Assembly (NCBI GenBank): GCA_035553475.1
Contig: DATNDQ010000014.1
Coordinates: forward strand, 7,350-71,349
Source: Gemmatimonadales bacterium
GTDB taxonomy: Bacteria > Gemmatimonadota > Gemmatimonadetes > Gemmatimonadales > GWC2-71-9
Length of the DNA stretch: 64,000 nucleotides
Direction of reading: 5' to 3'
Shown: piece by piece, positions 3,241 to 49,472 of the stretch
Layout: each line of letters begins with the position of its first letter
Position numbering within the stretch: position 1 is the first letter of the stretch
Notes under the pieces: model-generated
The model's database searches: none
Seen by the model: the letters and a program-made list of their open reading frames with translations, nothing else
Told to the model about the DNA's origin: nothing
Position numbers and translations under genes: made by a program

Positions 3241-4713
3241 GTGGGCTCCAGGACGTACGCGGCGTACGTCCTGGGCATCCTCACGCTGATCAATCTCCTC
3301 AACTACCTCGACCGCAACGTCGTCTTCGCCGTCTTCGAGCCGGTCAAGCACGAGCTCCACGTCACCGACCAGCAGCTCGGCTGGCTCGGCTCGGCCTACA
3401 TCATCCTCCTCTCCCTCTGCTCCATTCCTCTGGGCGTGCTAGGTGATCTCAAGTCCCGGCGGGTCGTCATCGCCTGGAGCCTCGGGTTCTGGAGCCTGGT
3501 CACGTCCGCTGCGGGGTTCGTACGCGGATTCGGACAGCTCGTGTTTTTCCGGTCTCTCGCGGGTGTGGGTGAAGCGGGTTACTCGCCGGCCTCTCAGGCG
3601 ATCATCGCAGACTACTACAAGGGCCGGGCCCGGGCGTTCGCCATGGGGATCTACTCGGTGGGCACCGCGGTCGGAGGAATCCTCGGCATCTGGCTCGGCG
3701 GCGTCATCGCGGCGCGATATGGATGGCGCTGGGCGTTCATCCCGATGGGAATTCCCGGCCTGATGCTCGCCGCCTCCGCCGCCCGGATCCGCGAAGTGGA
3801 CGAACGCGCGGCGACACCGGTGCGCGCCCTCCTCGTGAAGTGGTACCGCACCGGCATTCGTCACGTCGTGCGCTACGTCGTCCCGGTCGCGATGCTTTCC
3901 GCCCTGGGCGCGATCACGGCCGCCGTGCTCGATCTCACCTTCGACCTTTCCTTCGACCGGTCCATGGCGGTCTTCGGTGTGTTCGTGGCGGCGGGGTTGG
4001 CGTGGACGGTCGCGCGCCTCGTGCCCGTGGCGGTCCGCCGCACCGCCGGTGCGGGGGATGTGGCGGCGTCCGCGTTCGAGGAGTTTCTCGAAGCCGCCAC
4101 TGTCGTGCTCCGGACTCCGACCTTGATCTGGGTGTTCGTCGGCGGCGCGATGGTGACGTTCGCGGTGAACGGGTTGATCGCGTGGGCGGCGACGTTCATG
4201 GCCCGGGTGCACAACATGTCGGTGCCCGACTTCAGTGCCCGGTTCGGCGTGTGGGCGCTGGCGGGCGGCATTTCGGGCGTGCTGGCCGGCGGCAAGATCG
4301 GCGACTGGTTGCAGATCCGGTGGCCGGGGGGCCGCGTGGTGGCTTCGGGGGCCGGATTCATTCTGGGTGGACCCCTCGTGGCCTGGCTCGTGTTTTCCGG
4401 CAGTCTCCGGGGCTTCGCGCCGCTCCTCTTCGGCATTTACTTCTTCTATACCTGGTATAACGGGCCCCTCGCGGCCGTGATCTTCGACGTCGTGCCCGCC
4501 GCCGTGCGGGCCTCGGTCACCGGCGGGTTCGTGCTCTTCTCCCATTTGGCCGGAGACGCCCTCGCGCCGCCGCTGGTGGGATACCTGTCCGACAAGACCC
4601 ACAGCATTCAGACGGCGATGCTGATCCTTCCGGTCGCCGGTGTGGTAGGGGGATTCGTGATTCTGGTGGCGCTCAAGACCGTAGCGAACGATATGCAGCG
4701 GGTGAAGCGATGA
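3241..4713 (+). CDS. MFS transporter (Spinster-like)
   Basis: ORF 3241..4713 with a GTG start. About 12 hydrophobic segments. N-terminal LNYLDRNV and a GDLKSRR loop motif typical of MFS. Confidence 0.85.
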   Translation: MGSRTYAAYVLGILTLINLLNYLDRNVVFAVFEPVKHELHVTDQQLGWLGSAYIILLSLCSIPLGVLGDLKSRRVVIAWSLGFWSLVTSAAGFVRGFGQLVFFRSLAGVGEAGYSPASQAIIADYYKGRARAFAMGIYSVGTAVGGILGIWLGGVIAARYGWRWAFIPMGIPGLMLAASAARIREVDERAATPVRALLVKWYRTGIRHVVRYVVPVAMLSALGAITAAVLDLTFDLSFDRSMAVFGVFVAAGLAWTVARLVPVAVRRTAGAGDVAASAFEEFLEAATVVLRTPTLIWVFVGGAMVTFAVNGLIAWAATFMARVHNMSVPDFSARFGVWALAGGISGVLAGGKIGDWLQIRWPGGRVVASGAGFILGGPLVAWLVFSGSLRGFAPLLFGIYFFYTWYNGPLAAVIFDVVPAAVRASVTGGFVLFSHLAGDALAPPLVGYLSDKTHSIQTAMLILPVAGVVGGFVILVALKTVANDMQRVKR

Positions 4714-5702
4714 GCCGACGGCAAACGCCACGGCCCGAGCTGCGCTGCACCCGGTGCCGCGCCGAGCTCGAGCACTTCTGGTCCTTCTGCCCCAATTGCG
4801 CCAAAACACTGGTCTGGGGTGACACACAGCGCGAGACCGGCGCGGAGTGCGCGTATTGCCGCTGGATGGTGTCGGACACGTTCTCGTTCTGTCCCTGGTG
4901 CGGCCGGAACATCCACGACCGGCAATCGTCGCTCGAGCCGCTCAAGGCACCGAAGGGCTTCAAGTATCACGCGCGCTGCGACTGGGGATGCGGGGGCGGC
5001 GTGATGTACCCCATGCAGTGGTGCCCGTGGTGCGGACGCGAGCAGATCTGGCGCTACACGCACTTTCAGAACATCTGTCCGCACTGCGACAAGGGCGTCG
5101 ACGACTGGATGGACACGTGTCCCTGGTGTGGAGAGGACGCGACCGGCCGGATCCTCATTCCCCGTGCCCTCACGCGCGCGCGCCGGCTCCTGATCGTCAG
5201 CCGGATCATGGATTGGAACTACCGGATCCTGCTCAGGCCCGGCGTCTCGGGTGTCGATCCGGACGCGCCGAAGGTGATCGAGATCGACCGTCGCTACGTC
5301 ACGGCCAAGAGGCATCGCGACGAGATCAGCTGGAACATGCTCACCGGGCTCATTCTGCATGAGCTGGGGCACTCGTTCCTCTATCATCACTGGTCCTGGA
5401 CGACCACGGGGCGGTTCCGGCGGGCCTTCGGGGAAGTGCGGAAGGCGTATCGAGTGGCGGACGAGCACTGGGTGGACTTCGAGCGGCGGAAGATCGCGAC
5501 CACCCTGCCGGACTACGTCAGCGTCTACGCGGCGACGCACCCGCAGGAGGACTTCGCCGAAACCTTCAGGTTTTACGTGGCCCGGCGGGGCAAGCTCCGG
5601 GAACTCTTCGGGGAGTTCGGACGGAAACGCAAAGGCGTGCAACTCTTCGAGAAATTCCTGGTCCTGCACGACTACGTGAGGGGCCTGCGTGGCTGGCGCT
5701 GA
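4710..5702 (+). CDS. multi-zinc-ribbon protein with C-terminal putative zinc metallopeptidase domain (HExxH)
   Basis: ATG 4710 overlaps the MFS stop (ATGA). Four CxxC...CPxC units (CTRC..CPNC, CAYC..CPWC, C..C..CPWC, CPHC..CPWC). These are followed by HELGH and THPQEDFAETF, as in the putative zinc-binding metallopeptidase family. Confidence 0.7.
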   Translation: MSRRQTPRPELRCTRCRAELEHFWSFCPNCAKTLVWGDTQRETGAECAYCRWMVSDTFSFCPWCGRNIHDRQSSLEPLKAPKGFKYHARCDWGCGGGVMYPMQWCPWCGREQIWRYTHFQNICPHCDKGVDDWMDTCPWCGEDATGRILIPRALTRARRLLIVSRIMDWNYRILLRPGVSGVDPDAPKVIEIDRRYVTAKRHRDEISWNMLTGLILHELGHSFLYHHWSWTTTGRFRRAFGEVRKAYRVADEHWVDFERRKIATTLPDYVSVYAATHPQEDFAETFRFYVARRGKLRELFGEFGRKRKGVQLFEKFLVLHDYVRGLRGWR

Positions 5703-43922: not shown

Positions 43923-45488
43923 TCAGAATCCCCAAACTCCAGCCACCCGGAGCCGGGTGGTCAGGTTCATGCCGCCGAGGACCAGGCCGTGAAAAGACCC
44001 GTCGCTGGCCCGCCAGGTCGCCCCCGAGGTGCTGGCGACGACCCCTCCGCCGGCTCCTGAAATCGTGTTTCCGCCGGCCGGGTGGAAGCTCCCGAGACTG
44101 TCTCCCACCATCGCCGCCGCCAGCGTTTCGTTCGGGCAGGCCACACCGCCGTCACACACACCACCGACGGCCAGGACGGCGTTGCCGACCGGGAGGACGG
44201 AAAACTGCGATCTCCCTTGCGGGAAGAGGCCGGGTCCCGGGGCCCAGGCCGAGCCTAGAAAGAATCCCGAGACCAGACTGAGCGTGGCGGTGTCGCTCGT
44301 CACCAATCTGCTGGGTGTCGCGTCCAAGCCCCCTCCGGGATCCGCGCTATCGGCAATGCCCCCGAACGCGAAAGCGCGATCGTCGAGCACGACGCCGCCA
44401 CCGTAGGCCCGGGGACCCGTGAGCGACGGCGCCGTATACCAGCCGTCAATACGGCCATCCAGCCCCACGCGGCCGATGTAGACACCGGCCTGCGGCCGGC
44501 CCGCGGAGTCGGCGCCGCCAAACACGTAGATCCGTCCCCGCCGCGCCACCGCGATGGCGCCCGCGACGGGAGCGGGGAGTGGCTCCACCGGAACGAACGC
44601 CGTCGTGACGTGCGTCTGGGAAACCGCGGCGACGTACACCGTCGCCTGGGCATTCCCCGCCGTGTCCATGCCGCCGATCACGATCAGCTCGGTGCCGGTC
44701 AGGCGGGAGTTGTAAGGCGTGGCCACCACCGCGCTCGCGAAGGCGAGGCGGATGGGGAGCGAGTGGTTCGAGTCCGAGAACGTCGTGTCGTGCTGGCGGG
44801 TCCACGAGCCGATCGAGCCGTTGCTCGTCACCGTCGCTACGTACACGCCCGAATCAGGCAGGATCGTCGAGTCCCCGCCGATCACCTCGGCACCGCCGGC
44901 GGCATAGAGGGTCGTCGTCACTCCGCCACCCGACGCGGGGTACTCGGCGGCGGCGAGCGCGACTCCCACCGGCGATTGGGGGAACGGCGTGCGCGCCTGC
45001 CACAGAAATCCACTGGTGTCGAAGGGCACGCGTGGCAACACGAAGACGCTGGTGTTGAGGGTCCTGCCGCTCCTGGTGTGGATCGTGAGCGTACCGGACG
45101 TGGCGGTTCCGGGGACGACGACGCGGATCGCTTCATCGCTCCAGCCGGCACTGTCGGTCGCCGCGTTCACCGTGCCTCCACCGAGCGCGGCGAATGTGAC
45201 ACTCGACGTCGTGCTGTCGAGCTCGAATCCGAAGCCTTCGATGACGGTGGACTGACCCGCGGAGAGAATCGGCTGGATGGCGCCGTCGACGTAGTCGATA
45301 CGGGGAACCGGTGGCCCCGGTTCGGTGGCGCCCGTACAGGCCCCGACCGCGGCGAGCAGGGCGGCCGCCAGACGGCGGCCTGGGCGCCAACTACGACCGG
45401 GCGTTCTCTCCCCGGACGAAGCGGACTGCCCGCTGGAGATTCTCCGCGAGCGAGGACAATTGCGTGGCACCCTGGGCGAGGTCTTCAA
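43923..45488 (-). CDS. IPT/TIG plus Kelch-like beta-propeller lipoprotein (start uncertain)
   Basis: Lipobox LLAAVGAC. An IPT-like segment (STVIEGFGF...VTF...[16 protein letters not shown]), then repeated blocks YAAGG / VIGGMD / YVFGGAD / FAFGGI / LAVGGV. The only ATG (45488) and GTG (45470) overlap the upstream gene by 98 or 80 nt. Confidence 0.6.
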
Positions 45489-47523
45489 TCGCTCTGAGCT
45501 GTTCGGCCGCCGCGGCGGCGACCGCCTCCGTTTCCTGTGTGGATTCCCGTGCTCCGGCGTGTCCCTGCCGCAGGCCTTCGACGACCTTCACCGCGATGTC
45601 CGCATTGGCGCGGGCGACCTCGCCCACGCGTTGGCCGGCCTTCGCGGTGCCGACGGCCGCTTCATTGATCCGGTCGAGGTCTTGTACCCAACTGGTGGAC
45701 GTTTGCACCACGTCGGCCAGATCGGCCCGGATCCGCTCGAGCAGTTGAGCGGCACGGTCCAAGGCCCGACGGGTCTCCTGCACGGCCTTCGACACGTTCC
45801 GGGCTTCCCGCGCGCTCGCTTCCGCGAGCTTGTGGACCTCGTCGGCCACCACCGCGAACCCCCGGCCATGCTGTCCGGCCCGGGCCGCTTCAATGGTTGC
45901 GTTCAGCGCCAACAGATTGGTCTGGTTCGCGACGAAGCCGATGGTCTCCGAGAATTTCTCCACTTCGCTGGCGACATCCCGGAGCCGCCGGACTTCCCCG
46001 GCGCTCTCTTCGGCCGTGGTCGCGAGGTCGGACAGGCGCCGAACGGCTCCCTGCGTCGCCCCACGAACGCGCTCGGCGGTCTGCTGCATCTGGGTCCCGG
46101 CGTTCCGCGTAGCTTCGCCGGCGCCCGCGACGTCGGCGGCGCCGCGCCGGAGCTCGTCGGCTCCGTCCGAGGCCGTGGCGACGAGCGTCGCGGCGTCGGC
46201 CGCGCTCTTGCTGGCCCGCTGCGCCGACGCGGCCACCTCCTGGCTCGACGCGTGGATCTCCTGCGTCGTGGCGGTGAGCGTCTCGGCGTACTGCAACATC
46301 TTGTCCGAGGCAGTGGCGACGGGAGCCACGGAGCCGTCGAGCGCCAGCATCAGCGCCAGCTGAGGCGTGAGGAGACTCAGAAGCTCGCCGTCGGACTCAC
46401 GGTACATCCGCGGGTCCGAATGCCGGATGCTCCAGAGACCCATCAGTTTCCCGCCGTGATGGAGCGGAATGAGGATCTCGGCACCCGGGGTCTCATCGCC
46501 CGCCAGTACCACCTGATCGGGCCGGAGATCGTGCGCCACCAGCGGCCGGCCCAGCCGGAGGACCTCTCCTGTCAGCCCGGCGTCGGCGTCGTACCGGAAA
46601 TTTGCCGTGATGCCGCTCCTCGCCATCGTGGTGTCCGCGATGAGCTCCATCTCCCGCCGGCGCTCGTCGAACCGGATGATGCCCATGTGCTCCCACGGCA
46701 CCAACCGGCGGGTGAGATCCTGAATGCGCGTGAAGCTCTTCGACAGACTGATGTCGGCCGCAATGGCGCCCGTGAGCCGCTGTACCAGGTCGAGCTCGTC
46801 GGCACGGACCCCGAGCCGAATCACCGACACGCTCACGATCGTCGCGGCGGCGAGGAGGAGGCTCAGCGTGGCCGCGGCCCACAGCGGGATGTCCGATTCG
46901 ACCGCGCCGAGCCATCCGAGCGCCAGCCCGGCGGACACGACGTAGACGATGGCTTCCCACCGGGCCGTGAGGCGCGCGTCCACCCAGGCTACGGTCTGGG
47001 ACGCGGCGAGCTCGAGGTAGAACGTACCGTTGATGAAGATCGGGATGACCAGCAGGATGCCGACCAACGGGAGCAGGTTCGCGACCGTCAGGACATTCAC
47101 GCCCGTGGCGCCGTGCACCAGATCGTACGCCAACCCCACGAGGACCGTGCCCGTCCCCAGGTGCGCGGCGTTGAGCAGCGCGGAATAGAGAGGAAGCCGT
47201 CGCAGAGCCAGATCGCCGATCAGCATCGCGGCAGGCGCGACGACCACGGCGAATGGCCATCCCCGGGAGAGCAGCGCCAGGATGAGGACGCCCAGCACAT
47301 AAGAGGAAAATCCGTTGCCGGGAAGCGCGATGCCGTAGCGCCGGGACGCGGCGCCGGCCGCGAGCAGTACACCGGTGGCGAGGAAGGTGGAGCCGTTGAG
47401 GGCCACCCCGCCTCCGGCGATGGCCACGACGGCGGCGACGACGCCGACGATCGCAACGCCCGCGACCACGGCGCGGACGACGACCACTCCTGACAGGACG
47501 AAGCCGCGTTTCTCTTGAGCCAT
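45391..47523 (-). CDS. methyl-accepting chemotaxis-type sensor: polytopic membrane domain + GAF + MCP signalling domain
   Basis: ATG 47523 (MAQEKRGF) in ORF 45391..47565. About 7-8 hydrophobic helices. A GAF-like block ([13 protein letters not shown]...[16 protein letters not shown]). Then the conserved MCP hairpin [41 protein letters not shown]. Confidence 0.85.
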
Positions 47524-47584
47524 GCGGGGTCCGCGCAAGCTCGGGCGTGTGGCGCGGCGTGTCAAGCGTGGCTATGCTACCCGG

Positions 47585-47818
47585 GTGAAGCTTTCCATTC
47601 GCTACTGCGTCGTCTGAAACTACGAGCCTCGGGCCACCAGTTTGGCGGCCGAGATCACCCGCGAGTTTCCCGATGCCGAGCTCCAGCTCATTCCCGGATC
47701 CGGGGGCGTGTTCGAAGTGTCGCGTGACGGAGTGACCATCTTCTCCAAGAAGGCGCTCGGGCGGCACGCCCAGCCGGGCGAGGTCATGGCATTGCTGCGC
47801 GAAGCTCCCGCCACGTGA
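47585..47818 (+). CDS. SelW-like (Rdx family) selenoprotein, in-frame TGA (Sec) at 47615..47617
   Basis: Not in the ORF track. GTG 47585 read through TGA gives (M)KLSIRYCVV-U-NYEPRATSLAAEITREFPDAELQLIPGSGGVFEVSRDGVTIFSKKALGRHAQPGEVMALLREAPAT. The YCxxU, PRA..LA.E, GGVFEV and SK..GR.P..E blocks appear in Rdx order. The stop overlaps the pfkA GTG (GTGA). Confidence 0.7.
47628..47653 (+). promoter_or_regulatory. candidate bacterial SECIS hairpin
   Basis: It starts 10 nt after the UGA: CUC-(G)-GGCC-A-CC [AGUUU] GG-C-GGCC-GAG. That is 9 bp with one bulged G and one A.C mismatch. The apical loop contains GU. Confidence 0.35.
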
Positions 47819-48882
47819 AGATCGCCATCTCCACCGGTGGCGGTGACGCCCCGGGCCTCAACGCCGTCATCCGCGGTGTCGTGCTCGCCGCCGCTCACCG
47901 TGGCTGGGAATGCCTCGGCATCCGCCACGGCTACGACGGGCTCATGGGCCTCGACAAAGTCGTCCCCCTGGGACCCGCGGAAGTCCGGGGCATCACGCAT
48001 CTCGGCGGCACCATCCTGGGCACCACCAGCCGCGGCAACCCGTTCCATTGGAAAGAAATGAAGAAGGACGGGACCGTCGTCGAGCATGACAGGTCGAAAG
48101 ACGTCGTCGCCGAGGCCAAGCGGCTGGGCATCGATGCCATCGTCGCGATCGGCGGGGACGGCTCCCTCGGCATCGCCATGCAGCTCTACCGGATGGGCAT
48201 TCCCGTCGTCGGTGTCCCGAAAACCATCGACAACGACGTCGGCGGGACCGTGGCGACCTTCGGATTCGACACGGCCGTCCAGACCGCCACCGAAGCCATC
48301 GACAAGGTGCACTCCACGGCCGAAAGCCATGACCGGGTCATGGTGGTCGAAGTGATGGGCCGCCACGCCGGCTTCATCGCGCTCAACTCGGGGCTCGCCG
48401 GGTCCGCCGACGTCATCCTGATCCCTGAAATCCCCTTCGACATCAGGAAGGTCGTCGAGAAGATCCGGGCTCGCGAAGCCGAGGGGCGTCACTTCAGCAT
48501 CGTCGTCGTGGCGGAGGGCGCGCGCCCCAAAGGGGGCGGGGTCTCCCTCATCGACCCCGAGCACCACCGGCTCGGCGGCATCGGCGACAAGGTGGCTCAT
48601 TCGATCGAAGAGATGACCGGGAAGGAGACTCGCTCGATGGTGCTCGGCCACCTGCAGCGCGGCGGCTCCCCGACGACCTTCGACCGGCTTCTCTCCCTGC
48701 GATTCGGCGCCGCGGCGGTCCGCTTGATCGCGGAGAGGAAGTTCGGATACATGGTGGCGCTTCAGCCCCCTGACATCGTGGCGGTCGCCATCGAGGAGGC
48801 TATTGCGAAGCCGCGTCATGTACCGCTGGACTCGGACGTCATTGCCACCGCTCGCGACTTGGGCATTTCCCTGGGGGATTAG
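47815..48882 (+). CDS. pfkA: ATP-dependent 6-phosphofructokinase
   Basis: GTG start. Motifs TGGGDAPGLNA, GGDGS, PKTIDND, and MGRHAG. GGDGS rather than GGDD suggests the ATP type. Confidence 0.9.
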   Translation: MKIAISTGGGDAPGLNAVIRGVVLAAAHRGWECLGIRHGYDGLMGLDKVVPLGPAEVRGITHLGGTILGTTSRGNPFHWKEMKKDGTVVEHDRSKDVVAEAKRLGIDAIVAIGGDGSLGIAMQLYRMGIPVVGVPKTIDNDVGGTVATFGFDTAVQTATEAIDKVHSTAESHDRVMVVEVMGRHAGFIALNSGLAGSADVILIPEIPFDIRKVVEKIRAREAEGRHFSIVVVAEGARPKGGGVSLIDPEHHRLGGIGDKVAHSIEEMTGKETRSMVLGHLQRGGSPTTFDRLLSLRFGAAAVRLIAERKFGYMVALQPPDIVAVAIEEAIAKPRHVPLDSDVIATARDLGISLGD

Positions 48883-48990
48883 CCTCTCGCCGTCCCCTCC
48901 TGAGGACATTTTCCTCTGTTTCACCCCCGAACCGCCCCACACCTCCTAACCCCCTCATTCTCAGCACAGGTTCGCCCCAAAAAGCCCGCT

Positions 48991-49006
48991 TGGCACGGGA
49001 CTTCCA
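48991..49006 (+). promoter_or_regulatory. weak sigma-54-like -24/-12 element
   Basis: TGGCAC-GGGAC-TTCCA. The -24 half is perfect, but the -12 GC is replaced by CC. It shares the 10-mer CTTGGCACGG with the site at 27942. It lies 29 nt upstream of ATG 49035. Confidence 0.2.
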
Positions 49007-49034
49007 CTAGTAGGGGGCGACCACAGGAGGTCAT

Positions 49035-49472
49035 ATGAAACGGACCCTAATGTTGTGCCTGGCGCTTCTCGCTGGTGGGGCCATCTCGGCGAATGCGCAA
49101 ACCCGCGTGATCGTGTCCTTCGGCGTCGGAACGCCTGGTTACGCCGGGTTCGTCTCGGTTGGTCAGCCATGGTACTGGTACGGCGGTGAACGCGTCTACT
49201 ACGTCCAGCGCTACTACCAGGGCCGTCCGATGTACTACTACGATCCGCGTTACGTGCCGGAGGATTGGCGCGGTCACGACCGCAACTGGTTCGAGCGACA
49301 TCGTGACTGGGACCGCGGCCGGAAGTTCGACGATCGCGACGACGACCATGCGTGGCACGACCGCGGGCAGCACCGCGGCTGGTACAAGCGGGATCAAGGT
49401 GACCAGGGCGGTCGCGGCGATCATGGCGATCACGGCAAGAAAGATCACGGCGACCACGGCAACCATCGCTAG
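49035..49472 (+). CDS. small secreted Tyr/Trp/Arg/Asp/His-rich protein
   Basis: Strong SD (CAGGAGGTCATATG). Signal MKRTLMLCLALLAGGAISANAQ. The mature part is low-complexity (YYVQRYYQGRPMYYYDPRY, DRDDDHAWHDRGQHRGWY, GDHGDHGKKDHGDHGNHR). A strong terminator follows. Confidence 0.6.
   Translation: MKRTLMLCLALLAGGAISANAQTRVIVSFGVGTPGYAGFVSVGQPWYWYGGERVYYVQRYYQGRPMYYYDPRYVPEDWRGHDRNWFERHRDWDRGRKFDDRDDDHAWHDRGQHRGWYKRDQGDQGGRGDHGDHGKKDHGDHGNHR

Follow-up and report, generated by a model that had tools for sequence, protein, structure and literature searches.

SelW-like selenoproteins of bacteria have figured in catalogues since 2005-2006 (PMC1088965, PMC1794560). They form an established bacterial selenoprotein family, counted among those with few Cys homologues (PMC1794560, PMC1088965), and examples are found in Geobacter sulfurreducens, Desulfotalea psychrophila, Symbiobacterium and Campylobacter (PMC1794560, PMC4607533). 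The gene described here, which we call selW, is a newly recognised, unannotated member of this known family, and lies in a 64-kb stretch of DNA from a Gemmatimonadales bacterium (the window, i.e., the whole stretch of 64,000 nucleotides that was analysed). It has in common with the published members the small size (about 75-95 residues), a first beta strand followed by CxxU, a UGA at the second redox position, an intragenic SECIS just downstream, the predominance of Sec over Cys forms and frequent mis-annotation. It differs from them in its host, a member of the Gemmatimonadales, and in its genetic setting, a tight, conserved operon with pfkA preceded by a putative promoter of leaderless type, neither of which is reported for the family in the papers searched.

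More distant relatives include Cys proteins of solved structure and eukaryotic selenoproteins. The Cys-containing Rdx structures (Atu0228, 2FA8; SAV_2001, 3DEX; 2OKA; 2OBK; 2OJL; 2P0G) match residues 2-74 of the window protein, with E-values from 2.7e-10 to 2e-4, and carry the same signature, IxYC-xx-C...GG.FE. They differ in having CxxC rather than CxxU, a C-terminus longer by about 25 residues and no recoding signal. Mammalian selenoprotein W (mouse, 2NPB, E=0.11) and MIEN1/C17orf37 (2LJK, E=4.6e-6) are of the same family and share the N-terminal position of the CxxU; SelT, SelH and SelV are further relatives of the mammalian group. The sequence kinship with these proteins is distant, and the SECIS of eukaryotes, unlike the intragenic hairpin of the window, is found in the 3' UTR and acts via SBP2/eEFSec. 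Reported partners in this group include 14-3-3 and glutathione.

The closest counterparts of that hairpin are the E. coli fdhF-type element and the consensus bacterial SECIS (bSECIS) of Zhang and Gladyshev (2005; summarised in PMC13188914), which likewise form a hairpin 3' of the UGA, inside the ORF, with a small G[U/G] loop. The window element also agrees with them in its 8-bp upper stem, its 22 nt spacing and a minimum free energy (MFE) below -7.5 kcal/mol. The sequence of the window-type hairpin, GGCC[A/G]CC-[A/G]GU[C/U]U-GGCGGCC, is specific to the lineage and differs from that of fdhF. The fdhF SECIS carries a bulged U, whereas the window-type hairpin has no obvious one. In the open-access literature, our searches turned up neither a study of selenoproteins in Gemmatimonadota nor one that connects SelW with phosphofructokinase. 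The current understanding of Sec decoding is unchanged by the finding of selW. What is mildly new is the predicted lineage-wide usage of Sec in Gemmatimonadales, and a conserved selW-pfkA operon with a stop/start overlap and a promoter of apparently leaderless type.

We conclude that positions 47585-47818 very probably encode a genuine SelW-like selenoprotein in a soil Gemmatimonadales, with Sec insertion predicted to be driven by a SECIS. A first-pass annotation of the window had proposed a hidden gene of the SelW/Rdx family with an in-frame TGA at this place, and this proposal is now supported by profile matches, by the conservation of the TGA and by covariation in the SECIS. It had named an MCP-like gene and pfkA as the flanks, and both were borne out by profile matches. 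The features of the locus are as follows.

45391-47523, minus strand: divergent chemoreceptor gene (GAF+MCPsignal; 710-aa call), found upstream in 46/80 related loci.
47549-47578, plus strand: putative promoter, with -35-like GTGGCG (47549-47554), 18-nt spacer and -10-like TATGCT (47573-47578).
47585-47818, plus strand: selW-like (Rdx family) coding sequence of 77 residues, with GTG start, in-frame predicted Sec-UGA as codon 11 and TGA stop.
47606-47617, plus strand: redox motif Cys8-Val-Val-Sec11 (TGC GTC GTC TGA), with invariant Cys8, aligning with the CxxC of 2FA8/3DEX and the CVVC of Cys homologues.
47615-47617, plus strand: UGA codon, candidate selenocysteine; TGA in 80/80 related loci, TGT/TGC in the rarer Cys forms.
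47632-47650, plus strand: candidate bacterial SECIS hairpin, stem 47632-47639 with 47643-47650, loop G47640 U U, one A.C mismatch.
47815-47818, plus strand: GTGA overlap of the pfkA start and the selW stop (GTG 47815-47817 within the junction with TGA 47816-47818), with putative translational coupling.
47815-48882, plus strand: pfkA, 6-phosphofructokinase of the 'PFK_mixed' subfamily (PF00365, E=1e-105; TIGR02483, 437.5 bits, cut-off 430.55).

From the GTG at 47585-47587, the frame continues as AAG CTT TCC ATT CGC TAC TGC GTC GTC TGA, where the TGC at 47606-47608 is the codon of Cys8, and the translation of 47585-47818 is VKLSIRYCVV*NYEPRATSLAAEITREFPDAELQLIPGSGGVFEVSRDGVTIFSKKALGRHAQPGEVMALLREAPAT*. 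The TGA at 47615-47617 is the single in-frame interruption, and the next stop is the TGA at 47816-47818. The start, the internal TGA, the terminal TGA and the 77 residues that had been claimed are thus exactly what the sequence reads. The GC content of the read-through frame by codon position (0.64/0.49/0.79, in a genome of 66% GC) follows a coding pattern that is absent from the other two frames, and Pfam matches none of the alternative ORFs that overlap it on the two strands. The list of ORFs has a sole entry for this frame, the downstream fragment 47642-47818, and the matching public metagenome contig has zero gene calls between the chemoreceptor gene and pfk. An earlier start, ATG 47522, was considered and rejected: three loci (L061, L069 and L076) have stops in its frame, which show the segment to be non-coding, and it is as DNA that the segment is conserved (the promoter block described below).

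Profile searches were run with C or X substituted at the TGA. The Pfam family Rdx (PF10262, cut-off 22.6 bits) matched much better than expected by chance, with E=1.8e-19 and 70.2 bits (C) or E=2.9e-17 and 63 bits (X); the match spans residues 3-72 of the protein and positions 2-73 of the 74 in the profile. The NCBIfam model NF041051, which describes SelT/SelW/SelH family (seleno)proteins, gave 98.1 bits (C) and 90.4 (X), for a cut-off of 88, and TIGR02174 (CXXU_selWTH) gave 58.9 bits (C) and 54.4 (X), for a cut-off of 34.2. Hence, the Rdx and CXXU_selWTH models match at full length, the part before the TGA included. The solved Rdx proteins (2FA8, 3DEX, 2OKA, 2OBK, 2OJL and 2P0G), MIEN1 (2LJK) and mouse SelW (2NPB) align from residue 2-4 onwards, and their CxxC (CTQC in 2FA8 and 3DEX) falls on C-V-V-TGA. 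The Cys homologues P0003-P0010 carry CVVC in register with C8-V-V-U11, so that in forms reading CVVCNYEPRA the second redox Cys lands on the TGA. Cys homologues and CxxC structures thus agree in placing the TGA at the second redox position (C-V-V-U), where the first-pass annotation had put it. The product of selW passes every testable feature of the SelW-like/Rdx family, and its identity as a SelW-like protein is confirmed at the level of sequence. A thioredoxin-like Rdx fold is predicted from homology to the solved structures across residues 2-74.

At least 571 relatives came out of a scan that took one genome per species, and the comparisons below use the best 80 loci, nearly all labelled Gemmatimonadales or Gemmatimonadota; the gene of one of them (L002) is 97% identical to that of the window. 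At codon 11, each of these best 80 loci has the TGA, even where protein identity is as low as about 60%. The orthologues, which come from different MAGs, comprise 79 distinct sequences (78 in the codon analysis). Conservation across the related loci is of coding type on both sides of the TGA. In the ten codons before it, the entropy is 0.61, 0.47 and 1.12 at positions 1, 2 and 3, i.e., it has coding periodicity; Cys8 is invariant (78/78 distinct orthologues) and Ile5 nearly so (77/78). The start codon has a constant position, ten codons before the TGA, and is ATG in 66 cases, GTG in 13 and TTG in 2. The homologues do not, therefore, align only downstream of the TGA. A Cys codon (TGT/TGC) stands in place of the Sec codon in L084, L088, L089 and L090, and such Cys forms are a minority relative to the Sec forms.

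The codons preceding the TGA evolve as protein, which effectively rules out two alternatives, a downstream start and a pseudogene. A pseudogene derived from an Rdx gene of Cys form would require a single-base nonsense mutation (TGC or TGT to TGA), and would be in line with the lack of a gene call here in the source assembly. It would, however, have to keep the TGA at the same codon in 80/80 loci, under purifying selection on both sides and with an intact downstream frame, in a family where Cys forms are in the minority. The 79 distinct sequences come from different MAGs and are not assembly duplicates. We thus regard a pseudogene as extremely improbable.

Production of the post-TGA part alone, 58 residues from TTG 47642, is likewise very improbable. 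The ORF 47642-47818 exists, and dozens of database entries, 52-60 aa long, have their start in this region, which is how gene callers usually annotate the homologues. Yet these short entries start at any Leu or Met that follows the TGA, a known artefact for selenoproteins (PMC4607533). Such a product would also be without strand beta1, the redox motif and the greater part of helix 1, in a fold that aligns from residue 2, in agreement with the earlier claim that a downstream start would not keep the fold. Nor would it account for the conservation of the ten upstream codons as protein, with variation at third positions and an invariant Cys, or for the conserved start codon ten codons before the TGA (ATG 66, GTG 13, TTG 2).

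The annotation of the homologues in databases reflects the same difficulty. Our protein search returned 81 relatives of three kinds: full-length Cys forms, which carry CVVCNYEPRA; entries reading 'CVVW'; and short proteins of 52-60 aa. The 'CVVW' entries are two, the DNA behind a W form has TGA, and these entries come from gene calling with an alternative code, applied to ordinary DNA that contains TGA. The short entries, of which there are dozens, take the first Leu or Met past the TGA as their start. Two proteins (P0010 and P0012) have N-terminal extensions that resemble the in-frame upstream translation; these are over-extended calls in which the promoter block is translated as a spurious conserved peptide. 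Examples of miscalled entries are P0010, P0012, P0002 and P0001/P0008/P0014-P0017, and, among the loci, L087 and L089. Selenoprotein genes are often missed or truncated by annotation (PMC4607533). Here, hundreds of orthologues in Gemmatimonadota MAGs are missing, truncated, translated with W or over-extended, and annotation that takes selenoproteins into account would put right an entire family in a major phylum of soil bacteria.

The first-pass annotation had suggested the use of a bacterial SECIS predictor. According to a recent review (PMC13188914), the bSECIS model has 3-9 nt in the apical loop, 4-16 bp in the upper stem, a G within the first two positions of the loop (mostly N1-G-[G/U]-N-N2), a distance of 16-37 nt from UGA to loop and an MFE of at most -7.5 kcal/mol. 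We found a hairpin downstream of the TGA that lies within all these limits. It reads GGCCACCA-GUU-UGGCGGCC (47632-47650) and begins 14 nt past the UGA at 47615. The loop is GUU (or AGUUU, with an A-U closing pair), the stem has eight positions, seven of them standard pairs in the window, and the spacing between UGA and loop is 22 nt. The MFE is -9.9 kcal/mol, or -14.5 kcal/mol with a possible extension of the lower stem (47627-47655). In its 48-nt context, the window hairpin has a z-score of just -1.19.

Among the 79 distinct sequences, pairing holds in 95.1% of the cells of the stem, and shifting the 3' arm by 1-3 columns lowers this share to 14-55%. Two-sided changes affect four of the eight stem pairs, the observed covariation score was reached by none of 500 shuffles, and RNAalifold recovers the same helix. 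The most telling pair joins two third codon positions, one in an Arg and the other in an Ala codon (GC in 61 sequences, AU in 10, CG in 2), and is free of protein constraint because both sites are synonymous. When the Arg site has A, the Ala site has U in 10/14 cases, versus 1/65 otherwise (Fisher p=7e-9, uncorrected for phylogeny). The loop starts with G[U/G] in 79/79 Sec forms (G-U in 73, G-G in 6), and the third-codon positions within the hairpin are almost frozen.

The loop also seems to have left its mark on the protein. Residue 19 (Ser19 in the window; codons 8-9 after the Sec codon, 47639-47644) is Gly or Ser, encoded by GGU or AGU, in 73/78 distinct Sec forms, and we attribute this to its codon, which supplies the G-U of the SECIS loop. 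In three of the four Cys-form homologues, residue 19 is Ala (GCG/GCU), and the G[U/G] of the loop is lost. As read from these alignments, residue 19 is a clear, if small, case of an RNA element dictating the choice of an amino acid.

The DNA of the four independent Cys-form homologues was used as a control for the hairpin, and had to be rejected as a clean negative: the GC-rich stem mostly persists in it, with 0-2 broken pairs and an MFE of -6.4 to -12.6 kcal/mol. The weakest case is L084, with two broken pairs, an MFE of -6.4 kcal/mol and z=-0.17. This persistence suggests that part of the stem is imposed by the need to encode R-A-A-x-L-A-A-E at high genomic GC, or is left over from a Sec ancestry. 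The features of the region that are specific to Sec forms are only the loop signature and the covariation at synonymous sites. It is on these two, rather than on the stem by itself, that the assignment of a SECIS rests, and they make it a well supported prediction.

The machinery for Sec insertion was sought in the window and around the related loci. ARAGORN found no tRNA-Sec in the window and none in the 60 related loci that it covered, Rfam at the gathering threshold gave zero matches in the window, and tblastn with the SelA, SelB and SelD of E. coli as queries found nothing below E=0.3 in the 64-kb window and none of the three in the 3-kb flanks of the 80 related loci. The co-occurrence of the TGA and a SelB-type hairpin across at least 80 species-level genomes would nevertheless be hard to explain without Sec decoding, which is a strong indirect argument for it. 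The presence of the TGA in all 80 best-matching genomes would then imply that selenocysteine decoding is widespread in Gemmatimonadales.

The negative searches for Sec machinery in the window and in the flanks of related loci would also be expected if the UGA were decoded otherwise, e.g., as Cys or Trp by a near-cognate or suppressor tRNA, or by Cys-tRNASec, in a lineage without selenium-dependent decoding. Two database entries do read the codon as W. But these stem from calls under an alternative code on TGA-containing DNA, and simple read-through would have no need for a SelB-type hairpin, for its G[U/G] loop in 79/79 Sec forms or for its covariation. Furthermore, TGA is otherwise an ordinary stop in the window, where it terminates 10 of 28 confident long ORFs, and a search of the 64 kb for other TGAs with coding-type GC3 on both sides returned only two weak candidates, both without Cys, by a scan that missed selW itself and is insensitive to Sec codons very near the N-terminus. 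We consider decoding as an amino acid other than Sec very improbable. The two weak candidates, on the minus strand at 4969 (PQSQRA*YLKPFG) and 927 (GEGGLK*PGQGVA), are probably adjacent genes or due to chance.

Our preferred reading, Sec insertion, can be put as follows. Translation would begin at the GUG at 47585, and the UGA at 47615 would be read as selenocysteine instead of terminating it, because the hairpin at 47632-47650 would act as a bacterial SECIS and recruit SelB-GTP-Sec-tRNASec. Translation would then run on to the UGA at 47816. The Cys8-x-x-Sec11 centre, located after strand beta1, would cycle between the selenol/thiol and selenenylsulfide states, as in a small oxidoreductase. 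We infer Sec insertion, dependence on SelB and redox function from the sequence and its homologues.

The gene downstream offers a testable lead to the function of SelW-like proteins. A pfk gene lies directly downstream of selW in 63 of the 80 related loci. The GTGA overlap claimed for the window is present and conserved across the order: 27 related loci have a 4-nt overlap of the form NTGA, and 46 have either a gap of at most 9 nt or an overlap. No purine-rich Shine-Dalgarno sequence is visible in the 22 nt before the GTG of the window pfkA, and many loci with a spacer between selW and pfk are likewise without an obvious one; the lineage may not rely on Shine-Dalgarno sequences at all. In our reading, selW opens a conserved operon with pfkA, and PfkA is probably made by ribosomes that terminate on selW and then re-initiate. 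The GTGA overlap and the absence of a visible Shine-Dalgarno sequence point to this termination-reinitiation, which is probably the most economical reading of the junction.

A bolder reading is that the synthesis of PfkA in Gemmatimonadales is tied to Sec decoding, and/or that the SelW-like protein is a dedicated redox partner of the phosphofructokinase. The start of pfkA lies inside the selW stop, about 200 nt downstream of the UGA-Sec codon, without a Shine-Dalgarno sequence and on an mRNA that is perhaps leaderless, so that ribosomes might reach pfkA only by passing the UGA-Sec. Were the coupling real, glycolytic capacity would depend on selenium or on SelB status, and either form of the link with pfkA would give a first functional handle on the bacterial SelW family. 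We deem this bolder reading unlikely.

The remaining 17 of the 80 loci have no pfk downstream (L017, L028, L037, L038, L040, L046, L051, L052, L061-L063, L066, L069, L071, L072, L076 and L077). In L051, the selW stop is followed by a sequence that resembles the N-terminus of pfk (LRRAISTGGC...), without a significant tblastn match, and this may be a decayed or divergent copy of pfk. The short contigs that carry the P0005 Cys form (L084-L086) have no pfk downstream. Just past pfkA in the window, an ORF of 145 residues (49035-49472, plus strand) corresponds to a gene call in the matching public contig and has no Pfam match.

Upstream, the chemoreceptor gene and selW have in common an intergenic region of 61 nt. 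Within it, some 47 nt (47533-47579) form a non-coding block that is shared by about 45 loci linked to the MCP gene (e.g., L012:2935-2995), and that is more conserved than many coding positions. The -10-like hexamer TATGCT ends 6 nt before the GTG of selW; in the MCP-linked relatives, this hexamer has the form TAT(G/C)(C/G)T and the distance is 6-8 nt. On the minus strand, a TTGACA (47565-47560) faces the MCP gene and is perfectly conserved in MCP-linked loci. A scan of 47300-49100 for the sigma-70 consensus called no promoter. This pattern of conservation suggests that the block 47533-47579 is a compact bidirectional promoter. Since it ends so close to the start, with the GTG 6 nt past the -10-like hexamer, it also suggests that the selW-pfkA mRNA is leaderless or nearly so. 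On leaderless mRNAs, GUG is a weaker start. The loci that have no MCP gene show another arrangement, in which CTTGGC-N17-TACGAT stands 35-45 nt upstream and a GGAG-like motif comes after it.

Elsewhere in the window, ARAGORN called a 'tRNA-Pro(CGG)' at 4238-4329, of 92 nt, with the anticodon at position 37 and a poor D-arm, which Rfam does not see. It lies inside a continuous frame resembling a membrane protein, and is almost certainly a false positive rather than an unusually long tRNA.
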